63,499 nt of DNA from Candidatus Aenigmatarchaeota archaeon (GCA_039090665.1 JAWCSL010000003.1:1-63499), one strand, 5' to 3'; positions 5,019 through 56,659 are shown, numbered from the stretch's first letter. The notes: generated by a model not told the origin, from the letters alone. Made by a program: numbers and translations.

Positions 5019-5638
5019 GAAAGAAAGAACTAGAACTCATTTTAGAAAAACTCAAGCCCTTGGAAAAACCGAAGATAAGTTTAGAACAATATACGATACC
5101 AGCAGATTTGGCAGCAGAAATTTTGAATATTGCTTTTTTGTCGGGTGATATTGAGAATAAAAAGGTTGCTGATTTCGGATGTGGAAGCGGAAGACTTGCA
5201 ATAGGAGCAGCTTTGCTTGGTGCCAAAGAAGTGGTGGGAATAGATATTGATGAAGATGCGGTAAAGCAAGCGAAAGAAAATTTGAGAATCGCTGAAGGAT
5301 TAGTTGGAAGAAAGCTGAAAGTGAAATTCTTCTGTCATGACATAACAAAATGGAGAGGAAAATATGATACCGTGATACAAAACCCACCTTTTGGGATAAA
5401 AGGAATTTACAATGATAGAATATTTCTGGAAAAAGCATTGAATTCTGCTAAAAGAATTTATTCTCTACATAGGAACGGAAGAAAAGAAACACGAAATTTC
5501 ATAATCAAATTTGTTTCTGATAGAGGAGGTAAAATTGAAAATGTAATCAAGTTTAAATTTCTCTTACCCCATCTCTTTAAGTTTCATAGGAAACCAAAGC
5601 TGAGATTTGATATTGATCTTTATATAATAGGTCATTAA
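5015..5638 (+). CDS. METTL5-like N6-adenine RNA methyltransferase
   Basis: LEQYTIP, DFGCGSG, NPPFG motifs. Confidence 0.9.
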   Translation: MRKKELELILEKLKPLEKPKISLEQYTIPADLAAEILNIAFLSGDIENKKVADFGCGSGRLAIGAALLGAKEVVGIDIDEDAVKQAKENLRIAEGLVGRKLKVKFFCHDITKWRGKYDTVIQNPPFGIKGIYNDRIFLEKALNSAKRIYSLHRNGRKETRNFIIKFVSDRGGKIENVIKFKFLLPHLFKFHRKPKLRFDIDLYIIGH

Positions 5639-5813
5639 ATTCTCTATAAATTTTACATCCACCATAAACTCTTAGCCCAAAAAAAATGCGGTGAAGAAGA
5701 TAAGTACATTTTTGGTTACATGTTGTATAGAAATAAGGACAAATACCAAAAATTTTGTTCATTTTTTCCTTTGCCAATTCACACACCTATGGATTTTTTT
5801 GTAGATAAGCTTG

Positions 5814-5888
5814 TGCCCCCACTGGGATTTGAACCCAGGTTTCAAGCCCGAGAAGCTCGTGTCCTTGACCGGGCTAGACGATGGGGGC
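5814..5888 (-). tRNA. tRNA-Glu(CUC)
   Basis: Acceptor GCCCCCA/TGGGGGC, stem CGAGC/GCTTG, loop TTCTCGG. Confidence 0.9.
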
Positions 5889-5947
5889 AATACTTCCTAT
5901 TAAAATTTCTTTTCAAGATTAAAAATTAATGGGTGCCAACTTAAACT

Positions 5948-6211
5948 TCACTCAAGGATTTTGTAAACAGAATCTCCTTCTCTGACTTTATCAATTACTT
6001 TCAAGCCAATTGCATCTCCTGCTTTTGCTTTTGTGATTTTCTTGTGCTCAATTTCCATACTATCAACAGTTTGTTGGAAGTTTGTTACATTACCTTCTAT
6101 TGAAATTTTGTCACCGACTGAAATTTCATCCAACACTTCAACTACAGCAACCCCAATCTTTCCATAGTAATGAGTGATTTTTCCAACCAACTTTTTTTCT
6201 TGATCTGCCAT
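5948..6211 (-). CDS. Small EF-Tu-domain-II-like beta-barrel protein
   Basis: VGKITHYYGKIGVAVV...QTVDSMEIEH...GDAIGLKV...REGDSVY pattern. Confidence 0.75.
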   Translation of the reverse strand: MADQEKKLVGKITHYYGKIGVAVVEVLDEISVGDKISIEGNVTNFQQTVDSMEIEHKKITKAKAGDAIGLKVIDKVREGDSVYKILE

Positions 6212-6247: not shown

Positions 6248-6333
6248 TGGGCCTGGAGGGATTCGAACCCTCAACCCGAGGTTTCTTCAAAAAACCGAAG
6301 CCTCGTCGGATATCCAAGTTTCCACACAGGCCC
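6248..6333 (-). tRNA. tRNA-Arg(UCG) with 12-nt intron at 37/38
   Basis: Stem CGAGG/CCTCG; CT-TCG-G, intron TTTTTTGAAGAA; BHB central helix CTTC/GAAG. Confidence 0.9.
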
Positions 6334-6616: not shown

Positions 6617-7783
6617 TTACCTTATGATGTCGATGCCCAAAGTTTGACTGATTTCTCTGGTTACAGGTGTCTCATGGCTAACTGGGCCTAGTATATATGG
6701 AGACTTCACTCCTGTAACTATAACTATCACTTGAACTCTTCCTTCAAACTCTGGCAAAATTCTTGCTCCCCAGAAGACTTGTGCTGAAGGATCTAGATAT
6801 TGAGATACAGTTTCGCCAATCAAGTTTACTTCATCTAATCTTAGATCTGGTCCACCTGTTATGTGAACTAGAGCACCTTGAGCTCCTGTGTAGTCTACTT
6901 CTAGTAACGGATTCTCTAAAGCTCTAGTTATAGCATCTCTAGCTCTATCAGAGCTGTTACTTTCTCCTACTCCAATTGCTGCAACTCCCCCACCTGTATG
7001 CATCACAGACTTCACATCCGCATAATCTAGGTTAACGAGCGACGGTAAAGTTATGGTTTCAGTTATTCCCTTGACCATAGAAGCTATAAGCTCATCTGCT
7101 ACTGCAAAAGCTTGCTGAATAGAAAGATTGCCCGCATACTTTAGCAACTTATCATTCTCTATTACTATAACAGTATCACAAACTTGTCTTAGCCTTGCAA
7201 GACCATCTTCAGCTTTAGCAACTCTTGCTCCTTCTAGTTTGAATGGCATGGTTGCAACAGCTATTACTATTGCTCCCATTGATTTTGCTAGCTCACAAAC
7301 AACTGGTATGCTTCCAGTTCCTGTTCCTTTTCCAAGACCTGCTATTGCAAATAGAAGATCAACCCCTTCTATTGCTTCTTTAATTTCATTTCTACTTTCT
7401 TCAGCAGCTTTCCTTCCAACTTCTGGATAACCTCCACAGCCTAGACCTTTGGTCAATTCCTTCCCGATTAATATTTTTTTGTCAGCTTTTGTCACGGCCA
7501 AAGCTTTAGCATCGGTATTTAAAGCTATTGTAGTAGCACCTTCAATTCCCATTTCTGTCAATCTTGTGACTGCATTACATCCTGCACCTCCACATCCGAC
7601 TACAGCAATCTTTGCTTTTCTTACAGAAAAGCCAAACTCTTGTTCAGCAAGTTTGTAATAATCAACATTACTGAAAGTCGCTCCGCTTGTTGGCTCAAGT
7701 CTGAATCTTGTTTCTGGTCTGTCTTCCCTTTGACTGCCAGTCGTTCTTGCTAGTGCACTTTTAATGAGCGAATCCATCGGCAT
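6617..7783 (-). CDS. ftsZ: Cell division protein FtsZ
   Basis: VVGCGGAGCN, ALNTD, GKGTGTG signature variant, NLDYADV T7 loop, C-terminal LGIDII. Confidence 0.96.
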   Translation of the reverse strand: MPMDSLIKSALARTTGSQREDRPETRFRLEPTSGATFSNVDYYKLAEQEFGFSVRKAKIAVVGCGGAGCNAVTRLTEMGIEGATTIALNTDAKALAVTKADKKILIGKELTKGLGCGGYPEVGRKAAEESRNEIKEAIEGVDLLFAIAGLGKGTGTGSIPVVCELAKSMGAIVIAVATMPFKLEGARVAKAEDGLARLRQVCDTVIVIENDKLLKYAGNLSIQQAFAVADELIASMVKGITETITLPSLVNLDYADVKSVMHTGGGVAAIGVGESNSSDRARDAITRALENPLLEVDYTGAQGALVHITGGPDLRLDEVNLIGETVSQYLDPSAQVFWGARILPEFEGRVQVIVIVTGVKSPYILGPVSHETPVTREISQTLGIDIIR

Positions 7784-7932: not shown

Positions 7933-8318
7933 CTAAACAAAATTTTAACAAACTCTGTGTAAATTTTTTATTAAAATTTTATTTAAAAGCATTTTTTATG
8001 TTTAAAATATATGATGAAAATTGTATGATAGTGAATTTAAATCGTGCAAACTATTTTTTTCTTTATATATCTTTTAAATCAACATCAGTTATATCACAAA
8101 AATTTTCTAGTTTCTCTTTTTATTTTTGTCAAATAAATCTTCCAAAGCACAACGTGCAATCAAAAATTTTAAAAAATCATGATTTCTTACACTTGAACCT
8201 AACTTAACAAAAATTTTCCTCAAGTTGAGACAGTCTTAATGGATAACTTCTATACAAAATTTTAATTATTCTTGTGCTGTAATCAATTTCTTTCACAATA
8301 GGAAACAAAAAAATTAAG

Positions 8319-8404
8319 CGCCCTCGGTGGGATTCGAACCCACGACCTACCGGTTAACAGCTTCACCCTATTCGTCGGGTGCTCTACCACTGAGCTACGA
8401 GGGC
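8319..8404 (-). tRNA. tRNA-Asn(GUU) with 14-nt non-canonical intron at 30/31
   Basis: Loop CTGTTAA, G73; removing ACGAATAGGGTGAA (8362-8375) restores a 72-nt cloverleaf; BHB central helix CACC/GGTG with 3-nt bulges. Confidence 0.9.
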
Positions 8405-8416
8405 ATTTTTCAATAA

Positions 8417-9706
8417 TCATGGATAAACCCTATTCACTAATCTTGGAAATGCAGTAGCATCTCTTATGTGTTTGAGTTTACAAACCCACATCACCATTCT
8501 TTCAATTCCTAAACCAAAGCCTGCATGCTGAACAGAACCAAATTTTCTTAAATCCAAATACCATTTGTATGCTGAAGGATCTAGTTTTTCTTCTTCTATT
8601 CTCTTCATCAATTCTTCAAAATTTTCAATTCTTTCTCCAGAACCAATTATCTCACCATAGCCTTCTGGAGCAAGCATATCAACACTTAAAGTCACATTAG
8701 GATTGGAAGGGTCTGGTTTATGATAAAATGCTTTTATTCCTTTTGGAAAGTGTGTGACGAAGAAAGGTTTATCGAACTGTAAAGCTAAGACTCTTTCTTC
8801 ATCTGCTCCAAGATCATCCCCATATTCTATTTTTACTCCCTTCTCTTGTAAGAGCCTTATCGCTTCTTCGTATCTTATCCTTGGAAAAGGGGGTTTCATC
8901 CTCAATAACTCTTCAGGATCTCTTCCCAACTCTCTCAATTCTAAGCTACATTCTTTAGCGACTTTTTGTAAAATGAAACTCACAAGCTCTTCTTCAACTT
9001 TCATTAATTCTTCAATGCCACAAAACGGCATTTCAGCTTCTAAATGCCAGAATTCTGTTAAATGCCTTCTTGTTCTTGATTTTTCAGCTCTAAAAGAAGG
9101 AGCTATTGTATAGCACTTACCAAAACCAAAAATCATAGCTTCCCCGTAAAGTTGCCAAGATTGTGTCAGATAAGCTTTTGAATCAAAATATTTTACTTCA
9201 AACAAAGTTGAGCCACCTTCACAAGCAGTTCCAACTATTATCGGAACTTGAACTTCAAGGAAACCATTATCCTTGAACCATTCTCTAGCCGCTTCCAAGA
9301 TTTTGGCTCTAATTCTGAGGATTCGATTCATTTTTTTGCTTCTGATCCAAAAGTGTCTGTTATCCAAAAGAAATTCGGGACCATGGTATTTTTTTCCAAT
9401 CGGAAAACCTTCCATAGCTTTGCTTAACACATTAACTTTTTTTACTGCGATTTCATACCCATAAGGTGCTCTTTCATCTTTTCTTACTGTACCAAAAATT
9501 TCTACTGCCGACTCTAGGGGAAGTCTTTCTATTTCATCAAAAGTTTTTTCATCAACTTGATCTTTTTTCAAAGTACATTGAATGAAACCTGTACCATCTC
9601 TTATTATCAAGAATAAAATTCCACCTGAGCTACGCTTGTTGTGAAGCCAACCTTTTATTTCAACTTCTCCTTCTTCTTTACCTTCTAATATTTTTGAAAT
9701 TTCCAT
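8417..9706 (-). CDS. asnS: Asparaginyl-tRNA synthetase
   Basis: OB-fold N-terminus (GWLHNKRSSG), YLTQSWQLY, RTRRHLTEFWHLEAE, HAGFGLGIER. Confidence 0.94.
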   Translation of the reverse strand: MEISKILEGKEEGEVEIKGWLHNKRSSGGILFLIIRDGTGFIQCTLKKDQVDEKTFDEIERLPLESAVEIFGTVRKDERAPYGYEIAVKKVNVLSKAMEGFPIGKKYHGPEFLLDNRHFWIRSKKMNRILRIRAKILEAAREWFKDNGFLEVQVPIIVGTACEGGSTLFEVKYFDSKAYLTQSWQLYGEAMIFGFGKCYTIAPSFRAEKSRTRRHLTEFWHLEAEMPFCGIEELMKVEEELVSFILQKVAKECSLELRELGRDPEELLRMKPPFPRIRYEEAIRLLQEKGVKIEYGDDLGADEERVLALQFDKPFFVTHFPKGIKAFYHKPDPSNPNVTLSVDMLAPEGYGEIIGSGERIENFEELMKRIEEEKLDPSAYKWYLDLRKFGSVQHAGFGLGIERMVMWVCKLKHIRDATAFPRLVNRVYP

Positions 9707-9744
9707 ACAATCACCTAATTTTGTTTTTTAAAAAAATAAAATAA

Positions 9745-9818
9745 CTGCGGCGGGGAGATTCGAACTCCCATCATCCGGGTAACAGCCAGATATGCTAGCC
9801 TCTTAGCACCACGCCGCT
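9745..9818 (-). tRNA. Atypical tRNA or tRNA-like element: GUU anticodon, Asp-like body, A1-A72 mismatch
   Basis: AGCGGCG TG GTGC TAAGAGGCTA GCAT A TCTGG CTGTTAC CCGGA TGAT GGGAG TTCGAAT CTCCC CGCCGCA G; all four stems form; C38 and 4-nt variable loop. Confidence 0.8.
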
Positions 9819-9898
9819 GTAGCTTAATCCAGGTAGAGAAGCAATTTTCAAGAATTTTTTTGAATCTAATCGAGGCTAGCCAAATCTCAGGATAAGAA

Positions 9899-9931
9899 TC
9901 AACAACTATTGTTTTGGCAATCGCCCCTCAT
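9899..9931 (-). CDS. Putative leader peptide MRGDCQNNSC
   Basis: ATG at 9931 preceded by GGTGAAGGA (SD-like); tandem AAC AAT codons; TGA at 9899-9901. Confidence 0.4.
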   Translation of the reverse strand: MRGDCQNNSC

Positions 9932-9963
9932 TCCTTCACCTTGATTATTTATTTAATTCACAC

Positions 9964-9971
9964 TATTTAAA
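9964..9971 (-). promoter_or_regulatory. Candidate TATA box (TTTAAATA) with purine-rich BRE-like upstream sequence
   Basis: Minus strand AGGAAAATATTTAAATAG, ~25 nt upstream of the GGTGA SD of the micro-ORF. Confidence 0.5.
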
Positions 9972-10064
9972 TATTTTCCTTAATTGGCTATCAGATCAGA
10001 AAATTCTTTTTATTCAAATGCAGACAAATGGGGTGTGATTCTTGGATTTGTATTTTGATCCAAA

Positions 10065-11060
10065 TCAAGGCGAGGCTATTCCAGGAACTTTCGGAAAAGG
10101 AACAGCTTCCCATATTTTTTCCAACCCACAAATCCATCTTGTTAATCTTTCAACACCAATACCAAAACCAGAAGAAGGTGGTATGCCAATTTTCAGCATG
10201 TTTAAATACCACTTGTATTTTTTTGGATCTTCTCCAGTTTTTTTCATCCTTTCAACAACTTTTTTGTATTCATGCTCCCTCTCACCACCAGAAATAACTT
10301 CACCAAAACCTTCTGGTAAAATCAAGTCAAAATCTCTTAGTTTTTTCGTTTTGGGATCTTCAAGATAATAAAAACCTCTTGCTTTGAGGGGATAATCTGT
10401 TATCCATAAAGGTTCAGAACTCTGAGCAGACAAAGCTTCTTCAGCTTCCCATGGAATTTCTTCTTCATCACCCATTTTGAATCCAAGTTTTCTTACAATT
10501 TCAACTACTTGCTCATGAGTAAGTCTTTTGAAAGGAGTTTTTGGAACTTTTAATTTTCTGCCAAAAATTTCCAATTCTTTGAAACATTTCTTTTTCACAT
10601 CTTTTACCAAATAAACAATCATTTTTTCTGCCAAATGCATGGAATCTTCATAAGTAGCATAAGCCTCTTCTAGGTCAATTTGTCTGAATTCTGCTAAATG
10701 TCTTCCAGTTTTTGCAGATTTTTTTGGTTCAATTCTTATGTTTGGTGAAAGTGAAAAGATTTTATGGACAGAAGAGATTGCCATTTGTTTATACAAAATC
10801 ATGCTGCTCATGAGCTTGAACTTCTGGCCGTAAAAATCTATCGTAACTTGTTTAGCTCCTCTAATTCCAGGATCTGTAGCAGGACCTATTATTGGAGCAA
10901 GAATTTCTATGAAGCCTTGTTTCCTCAAAAATTCTCTTATAGCAGATAAAATTTCGTCTTGAATTTTAAGCATAGCAACCATTTTTGGATGTTTTAAGGC
11001 TATGTGTCTGTATTTGATTGATTGGATTGAGTTCAAGTTGCTAATTTCCATTATTATCAC
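10065..11060 (-). CDS. Archaeal asparagine synthetase A (AsnRS paralogue lacking the anticodon-binding domain)
   Basis: Class IIb catalytic core only; SMILYKQMAI, SPNIRIE, GRHLAEF, GEVISGGEREHEY, GFGIGVERL, PFPKVPG; no OB-fold. Confidence 0.9.
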   Translation of the reverse strand: MIIMEISNLNSIQSIKYRHIALKHPKMVAMLKIQDEILSAIREFLRKQGFIEILAPIIGPATDPGIRGAKQVTIDFYGQKFKLMSSMILYKQMAISSVHKIFSLSPNIRIEPKKSAKTGRHLAEFRQIDLEEAYATYEDSMHLAEKMIVYLVKDVKKKCFKELEIFGRKLKVPKTPFKRLTHEQVVEIVRKLGFKMGDEEEIPWEAEEALSAQSSEPLWITDYPLKARGFYYLEDPKTKKLRDFDLILPEGFGEVISGGEREHEYKKVVERMKKTGEDPKKYKWYLNMLKIGIPPSSGFGIGVERLTRWICGLEKIWEAVPFPKVPGIASP

Positions 11061-11095
11061 TAAAGTTTTTATATGGAAGCTGACAAATTAAATTT

Positions 11096-11374
11096 ATGCA
11101 ACCTAGCTTAAAAAAAGTTAAGGCTTTTATTCTTGCTTCTTTTACTTACACACAAAAAGGTAAGTTTTTGGACCAAAAAGAAATTTTAGCACAAATAGCA
11201 AAATTCCCAGAAGTTGAAGAAGCTCACATCATAAGTGGTAATTGGGATATTTTAATAAAAGTTGCTATGAATAGTGTGGATGACATAGGAAAGTTTGTGG
11301 TTGATAAATTAAGAAAAGTTAAAGGAATAGAGAAAACAATAACTTGCATGGTTTTCCAAACTGCAAAAGAGTAA
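11096..11374 (+). CDS. Stand-alone Lrp/AsnC ligand-binding (RAM) domain
   Basis: PEVEEAHIISGNWDILIKV...VVDKLRKVKGIEKTIT; no N-terminal HTH. Confidence 0.85.
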   Translation: MQPSLKKVKAFILASFTYTQKGKFLDQKEILAQIAKFPEVEEAHIISGNWDILIKVAMNSVDDIGKFVVDKLRKVKGIEKTITCMVFQTAKE

Positions 11375-11380
11375 ATGTTT

Positions 11381-11680
11381 TCAAACCTCTTCCTCTGGAG
11401 CTTCCTCTGGAATTTCCTCTGGAATTTCTGGTGTGGGTATGTGTTTTATTATCACTATATCACCCACAGCTTGAACCATCGGGTAAGGAACTATTACTCC
11501 TTTCTTTCCACCCAAAGCTTTGCCCAAAAAACCTTCTCTTGCAGCTTCTATAAGCAAGCTTCTTATCTTGAATCTTGCTAGGTCAAGCTCAACATCCGAA
11601 ACCTTACCACAGTAAAAACCTTTTGTAGTGAAGACATCTTTGCCAAACAAATCAGCAATGTCTTTAACATTAAGTGGCAT
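11381..11680 (-). CDS. PRC-barrel domain protein (CdpB-like)
   Basis: GKDVFTTKGFYCGKVSDVELD...IVPYPMVQAVGDIVII; acidic PEE-repeat tail. Confidence 0.85.
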   Translation of the reverse strand: MPLNVKDIADLFGKDVFTTKGFYCGKVSDVELDLARFKIRSLLIEAAREGFLGKALGGKKGVIVPYPMVQAVGDIVIIKHIPTPEIPEEIPEEAPEEEV

Positions 11681-11748
11681 TTTTACATCCTCCTAATAAA
11701 TTGTGGGTTTTAATATTAAATAAACTTTTGTGTATAAATTATTTTAGT

Positions 11749-12655: not shown

Positions 12656-12742
12656 AGCCCCAGGCGGGATTTGCACCCGCGACCTCATGCTTACCACGCT
12701 TGCGCAATTCTTATGCGCTCTAGCTAGCTGAGCTACTGGGGC
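12656..12742 (-). tRNA. tRNA-Thr(GGU) with 13-nt intron at 29/30 and atypical elbow
   Basis: GCCCCAG/CTGGGGC, U73; removing AAGAATTGCGCAA (12700-12712) restores CATGC/GCATG; loop GTGGTAA; T-loop TGCAAAT. Confidence 0.8.
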
Positions 12743-32390: not shown

Positions 32391-32712
32391 GTTGGCTCTT
32401 GAAGTAGCAGAAGAGCTTAAAAACAAACTGGAAGTCGAGTTTGTGGAATTCGATCCAATAGAAACAATTGAAGGTGATGTTTGGTTAATGGATGTGGTCA
32501 AAGGAGTAAAAGATGTGGAATTGATAACTGAAGACCATTTTGAGAAAAACAAAGTTTATTCAATGCACGATTTAGACTTATCACACATGCTTGCTCTTTT
32601 GAAAAAGACAGGAAAAATAAAAAGCTTTAAACTGATAGCAATTCCTTTTGGAATGAAGAAAAAAGAAGCAGCAAAGAAAGTGGAGAGATTGCTCAAATCT
32701 TTATCCATTTAA
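32344..32712 (+). CDS. Divergent hydrogenase maturation protease-like protein
   Basis: LGNPLLKKD, LMDVV, SMHDL motifs align with HycI/HyaD-type motifs. Confidence 0.7.
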   Translation: MMKIYTLGNPLLKKDRLALEVAEELKNKLEVEFVEFDPIETIEGDVWLMDVVKGVKDVELITEDHFEKNKVYSMHDLDLSHMLALLKKTGKIKSFKLIAIPFGMKKKEAAKKVERLLKSLSI

Positions 32713-33982
32713 TCTTAAGGAAGTGACTTGCACAGCTGAAGCAAGGATCATAAGCCCTTATCAACCTTTCAATAGCATGCTGCATTTCATGTTTGTCTTT
32801 TCCTTCATCCAGAAGCTTTTGAACCAAATCTTTTATATCTTTTTCCATCTGTATCTGGTTTTGGGCAGTCGGTATTATGAAATTCGCATACTTGACTTTA
32901 CCTTCTTCATTCAAATAGACCATGTGATACAATGTGCCGCGCGGTGCTTCAACCACACCTATCCCTTCAGTTGCTTTAACTGAAATTTTTGGCAAATCTT
33001 CTTGCTTGAAACTAAAGTTTTCGAATATTGATATACAAGAATCTATCGAGTGCAATATTTCTATCGCTTGAGCAAGATTGTTGTCGTAAATGTTGTGAGA
33101 AGGAAACCTTTCCAAGATATTTCCAACACTTTTTATTGTTTTCGGATGTAAAGCTACTTTGTTGAGATTCAGTCTAGCCAAGGCACCAACCATGTATTCT
33201 TTACCTTCAAACTGAAAGCTTGTTGCTTGTGAATAAGGTATGACAACACGGTCAACAAAATCAGCAAAATTTTCTTCAGGGATTACAGTCCCTTCAAAAG
33301 TTCTTATTTCGCCTTCTATGAAGTTGAAGCTTGGGCTACAGAGTGCCACATAATTTCTTTCTTTTTCAAAACTCAATTTACATTTAGCCAATATATCTAT
33401 TAGCTCTAGAGCTTTTTTCCTCACATTTTTCAATTTGCTTACGGCTTCTTCTATTTCTTCTTCAGATGGAACTCTTGAAAAACCACCAATTCTCACTTCA
33501 GTTGGATGCACAGCCCTGCCGCCTATAATTTTGCACACAAAGTTTCCAGCATCTTTGACATCAAAAGCATCTTTTATCAAGTTTGGTTGCTCGTCTGAAA
33601 GCTCAAGCAAAGAATCTTTTTCAAAGATATCTGGAAGAGTGAAAAAATAAAGATGCATGGCATGGTCTCTTATCATTAAGCCAAACGCTAAAAGCTTCTT
33701 CATCACCATCGCTTGTTCACTAACTCTCACCCTCAAGCCTTTCTCTAAAGCTTCTGTTGATGCAAGAACATGTGCTATACTACATGTTCCACAAATTCTA
33801 GAAACGAATTGAGGCACAGCCAAATATTCTTTCTTTCTAGTTGCTTGTGTGAAAAATCTCTTGTTTTCTGCAACTTTCAGTTTAACATCTTTAACTTTTC
33901 CTCCAGAAACTTCTACTTCTAACTTAGCATGTCCTTCTGTCTTGCTTATCTTCTCTATTCCTATTTGGAAATCAGTGTGCAT
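32693..33982 (-). CDS. NiFe hydrogenase large subunit (group 3b-like alpha)
   Basis: KTEGH, SRICGTCSIAH, GGRAVHP, EAPRGTLYH, RAYDPCFSCASH plus a 9-aa extension. Confidence 0.93.
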   Translation of the reverse strand: MHTDFQIGIEKISKTEGHAKLEVEVSGGKVKDVKLKVAENKRFFTQATRKKEYLAVPQFVSRICGTCSIAHVLASTEALEKGLRVRVSEQAMVMKKLLAFGLMIRDHAMHLYFFTLPDIFEKDSLLELSDEQPNLIKDAFDVKDAGNFVCKIIGGRAVHPTEVRIGGFSRVPSEEEIEEAVSKLKNVRKKALELIDILAKCKLSFEKERNYVALCSPSFNFIEGEIRTFEGTVIPEENFADFVDRVVIPYSQATSFQFEGKEYMVGALARLNLNKVALHPKTIKSVGNILERFPSHNIYDNNLAQAIEILHSIDSCISIFENFSFKQEDLPKISVKATEGIGVVEAPRGTLYHMVYLNEEGKVKYANFIIPTAQNQIQMEKDIKDLVQKLLDEGKDKHEMQHAIERLIRAYDPCFSCASHFLKIKWIKI

Positions 33983-42519: not shown

Positions 42520-43743
42520 CTACACATCAAAATACTTTTCAATTTCCCAGTCCGTGATTTTTTTCCTGTTGTATTCTTCTACTTCTGCTTTCTTTAATTC
42601 AATGAATTTTTCAAAAGATGGTCCTAACAAGTTTTTCATCAGCCCATCTTTTTCTAATTCTTTTAAAGCCTCTTCAAGAGTCGACGGCAAGCTTTCTAGA
42701 GTTTTGTACTTCCCATTTTCATAAATATCTTCTTCTATAGCTTTTTCTAGTTGAAGTTTGTCTTTTATTCCTTCAAGCCCAGCTTCAATAAGAGCAGCAA
42801 GAGCTAGATATGGGTTTGCACTCGCATCCGAAGCCCTAAACTCTATCCTTGCAGAAGCTTGGCTAAGAATTTCAGGAATCCTTACTAGAGCATCCCTGTT
42901 CTTACTTCCCCAGTAAATATACTTTGGAGCTTCAAATTCACCTAATCTCTTGTAGGAATTTATTGTTGGATTTGTTATTGCAGCTATTGCTTTAACATGT
43001 TTGAAGATACCTGCAATAAAAAATTTTGCTGTTTGTGAGAGCTTATGCTCATCATTTTCATCGTAAAACAAATTTCTTTCTTTACTCCAAAGGCTTATGT
43101 GTAAGTGCATACCATTTCCAGGTAATCCAAAGAAAGGTTTTGGCATGAAAGTAGCTCTAAGACCAGAAGATTCTGCCACCAGCTTTATAACATTTTTAGC
43201 AAACAAAATTTTGTCTGCTGTGGAGACAGGATTATCATACTTTATGTCAATTTCATTCTGTCCAGGACCTACTTCATGATGTCCTGTATCCCATTCTATC
43301 CCAGCTTTTGTTAGAGTTTCGATTATTTTTATTTTGATTTCGTGTGCTTTATCTTTAGGTGAGACATCAAAATAACTTCCTTTGTCAATTTTTTCTCCAT
43401 TTTTCAAAAGATAAAACTCAAGCTCACCAGCGGCAAAAGTTCTAAATCCTAAAGATTCAACCTCCTTTAAAACTTTTTTTAAGATGACTCTTGGATCACC
43501 TTCATAGGGTTTGTCCCCTGAATAAATATCACAAAAATATACTTCTGAATCATTTAATTTGAATCTTGAATTTTCATCTGGCTTGAGTCTCATGTCGCTT
43601 TCAAACCTTCTTGCTAAGCCAAGAATAGAAGAACCATCAAACCATATCCCCTTTTCTTTAGATTCTCTAAATTTTCTTTCAGAAACAAGAACTTCTTTTA
43701 AAGTTCCATTCATGTCAGAAAATCTTAGGCTGACGAAATCCAT
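42520..43743 (-). CDS. glnA: Glutamine synthetase type I
   Basis: FDGSSI, GELEFY, HHEVGPGQNEI, TFMPKP, GNGMHLH, NSYKRL, NRDALVRIP, RIEFR. Confidence 0.94.
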   Translation of the reverse strand: MDFVSLRFSDMNGTLKEVLVSERKFRESKEKGIWFDGSSILGLARRFESDMRLKPDENSRFKLNDSEVYFCDIYSGDKPYEGDPRVILKKVLKEVESLGFRTFAAGELEFYLLKNGEKIDKGSYFDVSPKDKAHEIKIKIIETLTKAGIEWDTGHHEVGPGQNEIDIKYDNPVSTADKILFAKNVIKLVAESSGLRATFMPKPFFGLPGNGMHLHISLWSKERNLFYDENDEHKLSQTAKFFIAGIFKHVKAIAAITNPTINSYKRLGEFEAPKYIYWGSKNRDALVRIPEILSQASARIEFRASDASANPYLALAALIEAGLEGIKDKLQLEKAIEEDIYENGKYKTLESLPSTLEEALKELEKDGLMKNLLGPSFEKFIELKKAEVEEYNRKKITDWEIEKYFDV

Positions 43744-45745: not shown

Positions 45746-45857
45746 TGGGCCTACCGGGATTTGAACCCGGGACCAACGGGTTTCTTTCATCTTTTTAATC
45801 AAAGCTTTTAGCTTTAAGCTAAAAGCCCGCTGCTCTACCATGCTGAGCTATAGGCCC
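45746..45857 (-). tRNA. tRNA-Lys(UUU) with 38-nt intron at 37/38
   Basis: Stem GCGGG/CCCGT; intron 45782-45819; BHB helix CTTT/AAAG. Confidence 0.9.
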
Positions 45858-53996: not shown

Positions 53997-56327
53997 TTAG
54001 TGGATTATATTGTGCATTGCTTTCAAATCTTTTTCAAAAACTTTGAGTTCTTCAGGAATTTCAACTTCAATATTATCTTTGAGAGAAAGTCCTTTTTCTT
54101 TCTTTAAATTCCAAACTTTAGAATTAAACTCAACAATCTTTTCAGTAAGCTTTTCTAGTTCACTTTTCCACTCAGGTTTTGGAAAGTTTTGCAAGTGAAT
54201 CGATTCTTTGTTGTAAAGTTCTAACCATATCTTTTCTGTTATGAAAGGAGTTATGGGGGCAAGCAGAAGCAAAATGTTCTTAAGACAAGTATGTAAAGTG
54301 AACCAAGCAGCCTCTTGCTCTTCTTTTGTAAAACCTTGACCATAAGCTCTTGGTTTAACCATTTCTAGATAGTGGGAAGCAAACAAATTCCAAGCAAATT
54401 CTCTTATTTTTGTGGCAGGAATAAAGAAGTTGAAATCTTCGTATCCTTTCAGACATTCTTCTATCAATTTGCTGAGTTCAGCCAAAATCCATTTATCAGT
54501 TTCGGTAAGATTTGCTTTTTGTGGTTGTGGGAAGGAAGAAATAAACCTTGCTATGTTCCAGAGCTTGGTCAAAAACTTTGAAGCAGAAGCGATTCTTTCT
54601 TCCGAACATCTGAAATCATATCCTAGGCTAACTTCAGAAGCACTCCAAAATCTGAAGTTGTCCGCACCATATTTCTCCAAAATAGGCAAAGGATCTATAA
54701 CATTGCCTTTACTTTTACTCATCCTTTCTCCTTTTTCATCAACACCATATCCCATTATCCAGGCATGTTGCCAAGCCTCTATTCCTGTGAGTTGGTAGCA
54801 TCTTAGCAAAGTATAATATAGCCAAGTCCTTACTATATCTTTTGCTTGTGGTCTTAAACTATTTGGGAAAGTTTTCTTAAAGAATTCCTCATCTCTTAAA
54901 AATTTTGAAATGAACAAGGGTGTGATGCTTGAGTCAAACCAAGTATCAAAAGTTCTGGTTTCACCTTCAAATTCTTTCCCATCACAATATTTACACTTCT
55001 CGAAAGGAGGTTTTTCTTTCCAAGGTTGGTAATATTTTCCAGGTTTTGGTAGGTTCGGCTTACCACATTTCTTGCAATACCATACAGGAACTTCTGTTCC
55101 ATAGTATCTTCTCCTAGAAATTGGCCAGTCTATGGTAACAGAATTAATCCAGTTATAAAGGATTTGTCTATGTTGCTCAGGATGAAATATAATCCTTTCA
55201 GCTATTTTTTTCACATCTTCCAAAAAAGGTAATTGTTTGAGATAAAATTCATCTAAAGATATAATTTCTATTGGTGTTTTGCTTCTTTCACAAACTGGCG
55301 TGCGGTGGAGTATATTTTCTTTCTTTTCAATTAGTCCTTCAGCTTCTAAATCTTCGATGATCTTCTTTCTTGCTTCTTTGACCTCAAGTCCAGCATACTT
55401 TCCAGCATTTTCATTCATCTTTCCCTCCAGGTTTATAGCTATTATCTCTTTCAAACCAAGCTCTCTAAATAGTCTCACGTCTGTGGTATCACCATAACTA
55501 CAGATCATCACAATTCCAGAGCCAAACTCAGGATTCGCTGCCGGATTTGCGAGAATAGGAACCTCTCTATTATATATAGGTAATACAGCCCTTTTTCCAA
55601 CTAAATGTTTATATCTCCCATCTTCAGGATGGACTAGAATCGCTTGACAAGAACAAATGAGTTCTGGTCTTGTTGTCGCTATTGTTATATACCCCTCTTC
55701 ACCAGCAAGCTTGAACTTAACATAAACAAGTTGTGTTGGCAATTCTTCATAAACAATATCGGCATCTGCTATTGTTGTTCTACAATCCGGACAATAATTG
55801 TTGGGTCTTGTTGCTTGGTATATCAAGCCCTTTTCCCAAAGAATTAAGAAAGTTTCTTGTGTTAGCTTTCTATATTCTTCTGAATCTGTTCTGTAGTAAT
55901 TTTCAAAATCTCCACTCAACCCCATTCTTTTCATTATTTGTATTAGCTCAGCTTCTAAATCATCCAAAGCTGTTTTTGCTAAAGCAATGAATTTTTCTCT
56001 TGGGGTTTCGTGCATTTTTATGTTGAATTTTTTCTCTGTGTATCTTTCGACTGGTACACCATTCCTATCAATCCCAATTGGGAAGAAAACTTCAAATCCA
56101 AACATTCGAGCGGTTCTTGCTATCATGTCTATTTGGGAGTAGTGGGCTGCAGCTCCAATATGCCATGGTCGGCCTGAAGGATAGGGTGGTGGAGTATCTA
56201 TGGAAAAAATCTTTTTGTTAGTTTTGAGGTTGAAAGAGAAAATCTTTTCCTTTTCCCACTTCTTAAATATCTCTTTTTCAATTTCAACATTCCATCTATT
56301 TTCCTTTATTTTTGGTTCAAATGACAT
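53997..56327 (-). CDS. valS: Valyl-tRNA synthetase
   Basis: SIDTPPPYPSG..HIGA, ATTRPE, DWPISRRRYYG, DTWFDSS, RMSKSKGN. Confidence 0.94.
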   Translation of the reverse strand: MSFEPKIKENRWNVEIEKEIFKKWEKEKIFSFNLKTNKKIFSIDTPPPYPSGRPWHIGAAAHYSQIDMIARTARMFGFEVFFPIGIDRNGVPVERYTEKKFNIKMHETPREKFIALAKTALDDLEAELIQIMKRMGLSGDFENYYRTDSEEYRKLTQETFLILWEKGLIYQATRPNNYCPDCRTTIADADIVYEELPTQLVYVKFKLAGEEGYITIATTRPELICSCQAILVHPEDGRYKHLVGKRAVLPIYNREVPILANPAANPEFGSGIVMICSYGDTTDVRLFRELGLKEIIAINLEGKMNENAGKYAGLEVKEARKKIIEDLEAEGLIEKKENILHRTPVCERSKTPIEIISLDEFYLKQLPFLEDVKKIAERIIFHPEQHRQILYNWINSVTIDWPISRRRYYGTEVPVWYCKKCGKPNLPKPGKYYQPWKEKPPFEKCKYCDGKEFEGETRTFDTWFDSSITPLFISKFLRDEEFFKKTFPNSLRPQAKDIVRTWLYYTLLRCYQLTGIEAWQHAWIMGYGVDEKGERMSKSKGNVIDPLPILEKYGADNFRFWSASEVSLGYDFRCSEERIASASKFLTKLWNIARFISSFPQPQKANLTETDKWILAELSKLIEECLKGYEDFNFFIPATKIREFAWNLFASHYLEMVKPRAYGQGFTKEEQEAAWFTLHTCLKNILLLLAPITPFITEKIWLELYNKESIHLQNFPKPEWKSELEKLTEKIVEFNSKVWNLKKEKGLSLKDNIEVEIPEELKVFEKDLKAMHNIIH

Positions 56328-56659
56328 TTCCTCTACCTCTCAATTAGAATTAATTTTATAAATAGAAGTAGATAAAAGTCAAAGCTGTACCCGACGATCG
56401 CCCTTCATTTGCCTCAAAATAGTTTTAGTGTTTTAGAAAATTTAAATCTTTTAGTTTTTTTAAGAGATGCAAAAAGAAATTGTCTTTATTCAAAGCTTCT
56501 TAGCGCTTTCAATCTCTTTCTTAACATTCCTATTAAGTTGAATGTGCTTCAAAAATATCTCTTTAGCTCTTGAGCCATTCATCATGTTTGAGCCAAATTT
56601 TCTCAGAAATTTATCATTTCTTTCTCAACTATTTTAATTTGAAAATCAAAATTAAAATT

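Follow-up and report, generated by a model that had tools for sequence, protein, structure and literature searches.

The window analysed here is a stretch of 63,499 nucleotides (JAWCSL010000003.1:1-63499, assembly GCA_039090665.1) from a hot-spring archaeon of the DPANN group, Candidatus Aenigmatarchaeota. Between positions 8319 and 11374 it carries an asparagine locus: the gene of a canonical tRNA-Asn(GUU), referred to as t1, the gene asnS of the asparaginyl-tRNA synthetase (AsnRS), an atypical tRNA(GUU), referred to as t2, the gene of an archaeal-type asparagine synthetase A, and a gene coding for a stand-alone RAM-domain protein. The first four are collinear on the (-) strand; in the direction of transcription, the synthetase gene is followed by a 245-nt spacer, t2, asnS and t1, while the RAM gene is divergent from the synthetase gene. 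A preliminary description had listed these five asparagine-related elements within 3 kb, and glnA elsewhere in the window (42520-43743, (-) strand; TIGR00653, 439 bits against 429); the five were recovered at the coordinates it gave, and glnA is present, with identities that the family models and Rfam bear out. It had overlooked an open reading frame (ORF) with asparagine codons in the leader of asnS, and this short ORF, with a relative ahead of the valyl-tRNA synthetase (ValRS) gene valS, is the main subject of what follows.

The asnS gene (8417..9706, (-) strand) codes for an asparagine--tRNA ligase of 429 aa, which scores 514 bits with the family model NF003037 (cut-off 414) and also passes TIGR00457 (453 bits, cut-off 343). 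The protein consists of an N-terminal OB anticodon domain (PF01336) and a class II core (PF00152), and the ratio of nonsynonymous to synonymous substitution rates (dN/dS) of its gene is 0.03-0.05. The asnS unit is made of a TATA box, a Shine-Dalgarno sequence, the leader ORF, t2, a T-tract, asnS and tRNA-Asn. The T-rich tract, UUAUUUUAUUUUUUU (9730..9744, (-) strand), was read from the sequence; it lies directly 3' of t2 and about 14 nt ahead of the Shine-Dalgarno sequence of asnS (9711-9716, (-) strand). Taken one by one, the genes of the locus are ordinary members of known families. Chance clustering of the elements is ruled out, because the adjacencies recur in independent genomes.

Leader open reading frames ahead of asnS and valS

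The asnS leader ORF (9899..9931, (-) strand; ATG AGG GGC GAT TGC CAA AAC AAT AGT TGT TGA) has 10 codons and would encode the peptide MRGDCQNNSC, with asparagine at codons 7 and 8. The region just upstream (9936..9971, (-) strand) contains the TATA box TTTAAATA (9964-9971), 32 nt ahead of the ATG at 9931, and the Shine-Dalgarno sequence GGTGA (9936-9940), which precedes this ATG; the two are probably the promoter and the ribosome-binding site of the leader ORF. In the five cases that were counted by hand (asnS and valS of the window, L004, L091 and L097, where the prefix L designates loci of relatives), TTTAAA-type boxes lie 30-33 nt 5' of the leader start.

An ORF of this kind is found ahead of asnS in all the Aenigmatarchaeota loci examined, which provide 15 distinct leaders for AsnRS identities down to 65%. 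Asparagine is at codon 7 in 14 of the 15, and the shorter leader of L095 has it at codons 6-7. Besides that of the window, the peptides are MRGGCQNNSC, MKGDCQNDI, MRGGRQNNS, MKGGCQNRNYFTS, MKGGCFNSA, MKGGRFNSA, MKGGRQNNRSSF, MKGGRQNNATLF, MKGDCQNNGRLA, MHGECFNLD, MHGECKNLA, MHGEYKNLA, MHGEYKNLV and MVGRQNN, the last being shorter by one codon. Gly3 and Asn7 do not vary among the 14 full-length asnS leaders. The start codon is ATG, GTG or TTG at one position, never CTG, and every leader reaches an in-frame stop within 8-14 codons. GGTG lies 5-7 nt 5' of the start in most leaders; three have a weaker, purine-rich match, and the motif is absent in L095, whose leader ORF seems to be transcribed without an untranslated leader of its own, the TATA box being about 20 nt from the ATG. 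Codons vary synonymously among the leaders (GGC/GGT, TGC/TGT, AAC/AAT, AGG/AGA, TTG/CTG). The set of start codons, the spacing of GGTG, the invariant Gly3 and Asn7 and the synonymous pairs are traits of a translated ORF more than of a plain nucleotide motif, and we infer that the leader is translated.

A regular expression derived from the leaders of asnS matches the 63.5-kb window exactly twice when both strands are scanned, for 0.215 matches expected from a first-order Markov simulation, and the two matches sit upstream of the sole two aminoacyl-tRNA synthetase genes found in the window, asnS and valS (53997-56327, (-) strand; NF009687, 940 bits). The valS leader ORF (56379..56408, (-) strand; ATG AAG GGC GAT CGT CGG GTA CAG CTT TGA) matches 52 nt ahead of valS, behind a TATA box, TTTAAATT, 30 nt upstream. 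Its predicted product, MKGDRRVQL, has the N-terminus of the asnS leaders, and its codon 7 is a valine codon. The leader of a ValRS relative (76% identity) reads MKGECRVVDF and follows its own TATA box and Shine-Dalgarno sequence. In a contig of a divergent strain, from a hot-spring metagenome, the valS leader reads MDGDLRVQL and shows three synonymous changes (GGC>GGT, CAG>CAA, CTT>CTC). A relaxed scan of all the intergenic small ORFs of the window returned no further member of the family and, in particular, no leader ORF of the MxGD type ahead of the synthetase gene or of glnA.

The rule that codon 7 specifies the amino acid of the downstream synthetase thus holds for all 14 full-length asnS leaders and for all three valS leaders. 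The comparison points to a family of leader peptides of aminoacyl-tRNA synthetases, M-[KRH]-G-[DEG]-x-x-X7, where X7 appears to be the amino acid handled by the enzyme encoded downstream. Within the unit devoted to charging, the leader ORF with its asparagine codons is the best candidate for the "sense" step.

Regarding the RNA downstream of the leader ORF, the T-tract at 9730..9744 is a candidate archaeal terminator or attenuator. No T-box and no other Rfam family matches the region 8250-10100 at E<=1. Two helices suggested by minimum free energy (MFE) folds were discarded: the pairing of GAGGGGC..GCCAAA with UUUGGCUAGCCUC in the clade of the window reaches only about z=-2 compared to shuffled sequences, and was rejected as a general feature, and the duplex energies of the helix between GUGAAAGGC and GCCUUCAC in L091 and L096 are noise by the same comparison. 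Classical bacterial attenuation does not fit, because, outside the clade of the window, the pairing of the ORF with downstream sequence gives helices that do not surpass those of shuffled sequences.

The atypical tRNA in the asnS leader and the canonical tRNA-Asn

The atypical tRNA t2 (9745..9818, (-) strand; Rfam 39 bits for a gathering score of 29) is found between the leader ORF and asnS in seven genomes: that of the window, L001-L003 and L092-L094. It is a full cloverleaf of 74 nt, with a GUU anticodon, G73, a T-loop and G18-G19. In the alignment of the seven orthologues, 93% of the cells are paired and five pairs are changed on both sides, one in the acceptor stem (6-67, which is C-G, U-A or A-U), three in the anticodon stem and one in the T-stem; the covariation score was matched by none of 500 shuffles. 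Some of its features are unlike those of an elongator tRNA. A1·A72 is unpaired in all seven sequences, where the base at -1 (C or U) pairs with G73; all seven have U or C at position 14; position 37 is A in six and U in L094. A canonical elongator tRNA has a paired 1-72, A14 and a purine at 37, from which t2 departs, as regards position 37 in L094 only. CCA is encoded after G73 in L001 and L002. A run of T5-T7 follows t2 in 7/7 genomes, at most about 20 nt before the Shine-Dalgarno sequence of asnS, and no consistent promoter of its own was seen for t2. It may be either a second decoding tRNA-Asn or a tRNA mimic that AsnRS would read.

A linkage of the atypical tRNA to the synthetase does not agree with its distribution: t2 is present without an adjacent synthetase gene in L092-L094, and absent in L004, L007 and L079, which have one. 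This linkage was rejected; t2 tracks asnS and its leader instead. It is missing from L089-L091, L095, L096 and the group of L004, L007, L016 and L079, all of which retain the leader ORF. In L079 and L089, there is an apparent empty site, CTACAGCA(C)TTTTAT, compared to CTAC[AGCGG...CCGCAG]TTATTTTAT in the window. Two simple origins were also discarded. A recent copy of t1 is excluded, the two sequences being unrelated outside the anticodon loop, and regarding a viral or mobile origin, the pattern formed by the T-arm and the acceptor has no match in 2.9 million viral contigs.

The canonical tRNA-Asn(GUU), t1 (8319..8404, (-) strand; 86 nt, Rfam 56.5 bits), starts 12 nt 3' of the asnS stop codon and has G73. 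It is interrupted, between tRNA positions 30 and 31, by a non-canonical intron of 14 nt, ACGAAUAGGGUGAA (8362..8375, (-) strand), which was read from the sequence and is bordered by a bulge-helix-bulge motif, with a 4-bp central helix (CACC/GGUG) and 3-nt bulges (CG|A and AA|G). Once spliced, t1 is a canonical tRNA-Asn(GUU) of 72 nt with G73, which differs from the intron-less gene of L001 by one base of the T-loop. Introns ending in GGUGA(A/G) occupy the same site in L003, L094 and L096, and there is no intron in L001, L089 and L092. A tRNA-Asn gene lies 1-47 nt 3' of asnS in 12 of 15 distinct relatives; none was found in the downstream sequence examined of L090, L093 and L095. ARAGORN, run in bacterial mode, failed to type t1 and missed t2 in L092 even with the intron option, so that Rfam and manual reading were used.

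The tRNA-Asn gene is variable among the relatives. That of L001 (8653-8724) is free of introns; that of L003 (about 8590-8700) has two, after position 9 and at 30/31; that of L002 (8981-9620) is interrupted in the D-loop by about 560 nt of inserted sequence, which carries a 164-aa ORF (9036-9530). L002 also has, alone among the close relatives, an extra Cys-rich ORF of 84 aa (7166-7420) between the synthetase gene and the asnS leader. In L089, a gene of the tyrosine-recombinase (phage integrase) family (5432-6200) lies directly 3' of the tRNA-Asn gene (5301-5374), which suggests that this tRNA gene is the integration site of a mobile element. The window contains three more tRNA genes with introns, at 45746-45857 (112 nt), 12656-12742 and 6248-6333, all on the (-) strand, with Rfam scores of 44-62 bits; ARAGORN missed or mis-typed all three.

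The asparagine synthetase and its divergent regulator

The synthetase gene (10065..11051, (-) strand) codes for 328 aa when it is read from the conserved ATG, and the protein scores 438 bits with NF005052, against 368. The longest ORF starts at a GTG (11060), and homologues use the ATG at 11051; the divergent gap to the RAM gene, previously given as 35 bp, has this length from the GTG and is 44 bp from the conserved ATG. The protein consists of the class II core only (PF00152 over residues 14-325 of 331); the OB domain is absent. It has 1394 homologues, many of which are named asparagine synthetase A, and its dN/dS is 0.05-0.07. Among solved structures, phmmer ranks the AsnRS of Pyrococcus horikoshii (1x54, 200 bits) before 1nnh (170 bits) and 3p8t (161 bits), and the enzyme of the window belongs to a subfamily separate from that of the characterised Pyrococcus enzyme. 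Genomes encoding AsnA use AsnRS, not GatCAB (PMC2330236).

The synteny of the synthetase was followed in 88 loci encoding its relatives, from three genomes, five look-ups of exact proteins and 80 metagenomes. A complete, divergent Lrp/AsnC gene, coding for 158-175 aa with a helix-turn-helix (HTH) and a RAM domain, is immediately upstream of the synthetase gene in 74 of them, and in a further eight the contig ends within this gene, which brings the paired loci to 82/88. The regulator is missing in two loci, and one is uninformative. The RAM-only form of 92 aa is shared solely with the three closest relatives, L001-L003. By homology and synteny, the divergent pair of regulator and synthetase genes is widespread in archaea, and its ancestral state is the full-length regulator with HTH and RAM domains.

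This pair and the asnS unit are distributed differently. Most of the synthetase/regulator loci have no asnS alongside, and the order synthetase-asnS-tRNA-Asn is restricted to Aenigmatarchaeota. L091 has kept the synthetase and lost the sensor; L089, L090 and L092-L096 have asnS without an adjacent synthetase or sensor gene. The part of the locus formed by the synthetase and the sensor is undergoing trimming in several lineages.

The RAM protein of the window (11096..11374, (+) strand, 92 aa; PF01037, 58 bits) cannot be preceded by an HTH domain, since the reading frame does not extend upstream of 11084. With the 159-aa regulator of L004 it aligns over residues 65-153, at 65% identity, and it retains 39 of the 49 most conserved RAM columns. 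Its AlphaFold2 (AF2) model (pLDDT 79.5) has the beta-alpha-beta-beta-alpha-beta fold, with Foldseek target-normalised TM-scores of 0.86 to DM1 (2e1a) and 0.80 to STS042. In a comparison of four genomes, the dN/dS of the gene is 0.055-0.076 at dS values of 0.6-1.5. This low ratio, in the regime of both neighbouring enzymes, indicates strong purifying selection and shows that the gene is maintained and is not decaying. By sequence, the protein is orthologous to the C-terminal half of the AsnC-type regulator linked to the synthetase, which has lost its HTH by deletion in the clade of the window. That it is a RAM-only protein of the Lrp type, as the preliminary description had it, was confirmed; what has to be revised is its nature, for it derives from a full-length AsnC-type regulator by truncation and, lacking the HTH, it cannot bind DNA alone. 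The background on which that description relied, regarding the AsnRS paralogues of Pyrococcus and the RAM proteins devoid of HTH, is sound (PDB entries; PMC2995911): members of the stand-alone RAM group are known to bind amino acids and to assemble into mixed octamers together with full-length relatives, as DM1 does in hetero-octamers with FL11, a full-length regulator (PMC2995911).

Some observations concern the surroundings of these genes. The sequence TTTTTATAT at 11066-11074, 21 nt 5' of the ATG of the RAM gene, suggests that the RAM transcript is leaderless; the likely TATA box of the synthetase gene overlaps the RAM start, and the divergent promoters (11052-11095) appear to interlock. 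The locus is flanked by the gene of a 99-aa PRC-barrel protein (11381-11680, (-) strand). In the eleven relatives of the window clade that were checked, except L095, such a gene is located upstream of asnS or of the synthetase gene, at a distance of at most about 3 kb, and in L092 and L093 other genes intervene. Elsewhere in the window are the archaeal RNase P RNA (722-977, (-) strand; Rfam RF00373, 133 bits) and an ORF of the [NiFe]-hydrogenase large subunit family (32693-33982, (-) strand; PF00374, 104 bits), which is unexpected for a small genome of the DPANN type. The RNase P RNA and the best protein hits agree in assigning the window to Candidatus Aenigmatarchaeota.

Readings of the locus and comparison with known systems

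We consider it probable that the asparagine-supply locus consists of two transcription units, and that asnS is controlled by a mechanism in which the ribosome senses Asn-tRNA. One unit would be formed by an ammonia-dependent synthetase paralogous to AsnRS and the divergent gene of an Lrp/AsnC-family sensor, as homology and synteny indicate; the other is the asnS unit described above. When the cognate aminoacyl-tRNA is scarce, the ribosome would pause at codon 7 of the leader, where about 30 nt would separate it from the 5' end of the transcript; since the start codon of the ORF is about 10 nt downstream of the predicted start of transcription, the paused ribosome could change the fate of the transcript. 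This might occur by altered read-through of the T-tract before asnS, or by protection of the 5' end from decay, and the output of AsnRS and tRNA-Asn would follow the supply of Asn-tRNA. The RAM protein may still bind the amino acid of its ancestor and signal by protein-protein contacts, the partner being either the synthetase or another Lrp-family protein encoded in another part of the genome.

The more general form of this proposal is that Aenigmatarchaeota use leader peptides of 8-13 codons, about 10 nt from the 5' ends of the transcripts of aminoacyl-tRNA synthetases, whose codon 7 is cognate (Asn for asnS, Val for valS), as a sensor of tRNA charging that works without alternative hairpins of the bacterial kind and that, in some lineages, would be combined with a GUU tRNA-like element perhaps bound by AsnRS. 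To this wider claim we give slightly less than an even chance.

Several observations weigh against these proposals. The codon-7 rule is drawn from two types of aminoacyl-tRNA synthetase only, those of asnS and valS. In the leader peptides, C, R, Y or L is found at residue 5, and one strain has Asp as residue 2; this loose conservation could partly reflect a constraint on nucleotides. No conserved alternative RNA structure joins the leader ORF to the downstream sequence, the z-scores of the duplexes being mostly noise. In three hot-spring metatranscriptomes from the study to which this genome belongs, the interval 8200-11700 is covered by 0, 0 and 5 reads. The NF005052 subfamily is nearer in sequence to the AsnRS core than to the characterised Pyrococcus enzyme, and asparagine synthesis is a putative activity of its members. 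As for the RAM protein, no gene of a full-length Lrp/AsnC partner was found in the 63.5-kb window, and the protein is dispensable in some backgrounds, since sister lineages have lost the sensor, or the sensor and the synthetase.

The preliminary description had seen in the locus a single coordinated module that makes, senses and charges asparagine, in which the RAM-only protein would sense asparagine for the whole island and both tRNAs would work with the synthetase and AsnRS. The grouping of the five elements and the fact that the entire arrangement is kept in the three closest genomes speak in favour of it. The neighbourhood is indeed conserved, on which that description had staked its proposal, though in a modular manner: the synthetase and sensor occur without asnS in most loci, asnS and its leader occur without them in seven others, t2 is not confined to loci with the synthetase nor found in all of them, asnS is served by a TATA box and a leader ORF of its own, and the RAM-only protein has no DNA-binding domain. 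With separate promoters and different phylogenetic distributions for the synthetase/sensor pair and the asnS/tRNA unit, a single five-part module is distinctly improbable. Even less credible, to the point that we would be surprised if it were true, is the idea of a locus decaying in a reduced genome, with the RAM gene as a dying fragment and t2 as a tRNA pseudogene. Losses of the sensor or the synthetase in sister lineages, the low Rfam score of t2 and its having escaped ARAGORN in L092 could be understood in this manner, but the RAM gene evolves like the neighbouring enzymes, at dS values up to 1.5, and t2 has kept its pairing, with five doubly compensated pairs across the seven genomes.

Two other explanations concern the parts of the asnS leader. 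The leader ORF may be an untranslated motif of RNA or DNA, such as a T-box-like specifier that pairs with the anticodon of the tRNA, or a site to which a regulator or the synthetase binds. The cognate triplet would then double as the specifier; positions 2, 5 and 6 of the peptide tolerate unlike residues (C, R, Y, L) that are single nucleotide changes apart; and a full-text literature search found no description of leader peptides or upstream ORFs of aminoacyl-tRNA synthetases in archaea, nor of control by leader peptides. This is unlikely in our opinion: a bare motif does not account for a GGTG-type Shine-Dalgarno sequence that is correctly spaced in most leaders, for a start position that is A, G or T and never C, for in-frame stops that always come in time, or for synonymous changes such as TTG/CTG and, after codon 7, CAG>CAA and CTT>CTC; the leader of L095, apparently leaderless, and the lack of a T-box or other Rfam match in the region also argue against such a motif. 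The other explanation takes t2 as a cis-acting tRNA mimic in the leader of the asnS mRNA, which AsnRS would bind by GUU and G73 to regulate its own synthesis or processing in the style of the thrS operator, and not as a decoding tRNA. Its position between the leader ORF and asnS without a promoter, and the invariant A1·A72, the pyrimidine at 14 and the U37 of L094, which are odd for an elongator tRNA, are in keeping with this; the same genomes already have a canonical tRNA-Asn, and if the leader were simply cut off, no selection would be expected on the pairing of -1 with G73, which is conserved. On the other hand, the complete cloverleaf, which has a T-loop, G18-G19 and compensatory changes, is just as compatible with a real tRNA, CCA is encoded in L001 and L002, and the absence of t2 from many lineages that keep the leader ORF makes it unnecessary for the function of the leader. 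We regard the mimic as a possibility to be taken seriously, though on balance a rather doubtful one.

The two-unit reading can be compared to systems that are already described. In E. coli, the gene of the regulator AsnC is divergent from asnA, which encodes an ammonia-dependent asparagine synthetase. The pair of the window resembles asnC-asnA in that an AsnC-family gene is divergent from that of a predicted ammonia-dependent synthetase related to aminoacyl-tRNA synthetases, as is the case in 82 of the 88 loci studied here; however, the synthetase is of the archaeal type, paralogous to AsnRS, and is not the bacterial AsnA, and the regulator of the window has lost its HTH, which makes direct transcriptional control by the RAM protein alone impossible. 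Like the asparagine synthetase A of Pyrococcus abyssi (PDB 3P8T and related entries; 1NNH for P. furiosus), the enzyme has a class II core without an anticodon-binding domain, but it belongs to NF005052 and has about 328 aa compared to 294. The RAM protein shares its fold, its size and the lack of HTH with the stand-alone RAM proteins of Pyrococcus (DM1, 2E1A), Sulfolobus (STS042, 2ZBC) and Thermus (TTHA0845, 2DJW); unlike theirs, its origin can be traced to a regulator linked to the synthetase, and it has kept its divergent position beside the former target.

Regarding the leaders, the resemblance is with bacterial leader peptides (pheM-pheST, trpL, hisL), which are encoded by very short 5' ORFs with codons for the amino acid handled downstream. 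The present ones differ from these in being archaeal, in having a single candidate sensor codon, fixed at position 7 after a semi-conserved N-terminus that is common to asnS and valS, and in that the putative downstream signal is a T-tract, without conserved terminator or antiterminator hairpins. The presence of t2 also recalls the thrS operator of E. coli and the T-box leaders, where an RNA element that is shaped like a tRNA or reads a tRNA lies in the 5' leader of the cognate synthetase gene; yet t2 is a complete cloverleaf of 74 nt, neither a mimic of an anticodon arm nor a tRNA-binding riboswitch, and no T-box was matched.

What the comparative evidence puts forward as new is a putative leader-peptide family with a fixed cognate codon before two archaeal synthetase genes, and a rule-breaking tRNA in one of the leaders. 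To our knowledge, the manner in which archaea match the levels of aminoacyl-tRNA synthetases to the supply of amino acids is largely unexplained, and we know of no T-box or leader-peptide attenuator described in archaea. A cognate codon at a fixed position offers a concrete mechanism for this control, which can be searched for in every archaeal genome; if the proposal is true, Archaea would have their first described leader-peptide sensor of tRNA charging, one that works without alternative hairpins of the bacterial style. As a structurally conserved, rule-breaking tRNA(GUU) in the leader of the gene of its own synthetase, t2 is a candidate tRNA mimic. Last, the locus clearly documents an evolutionary path that leads from a full-length Lrp/AsnC regulator to a stand-alone RAM protein which is under selection at the old target gene, and this bears on the unresolved role of the RAM proteins that have no HTH.

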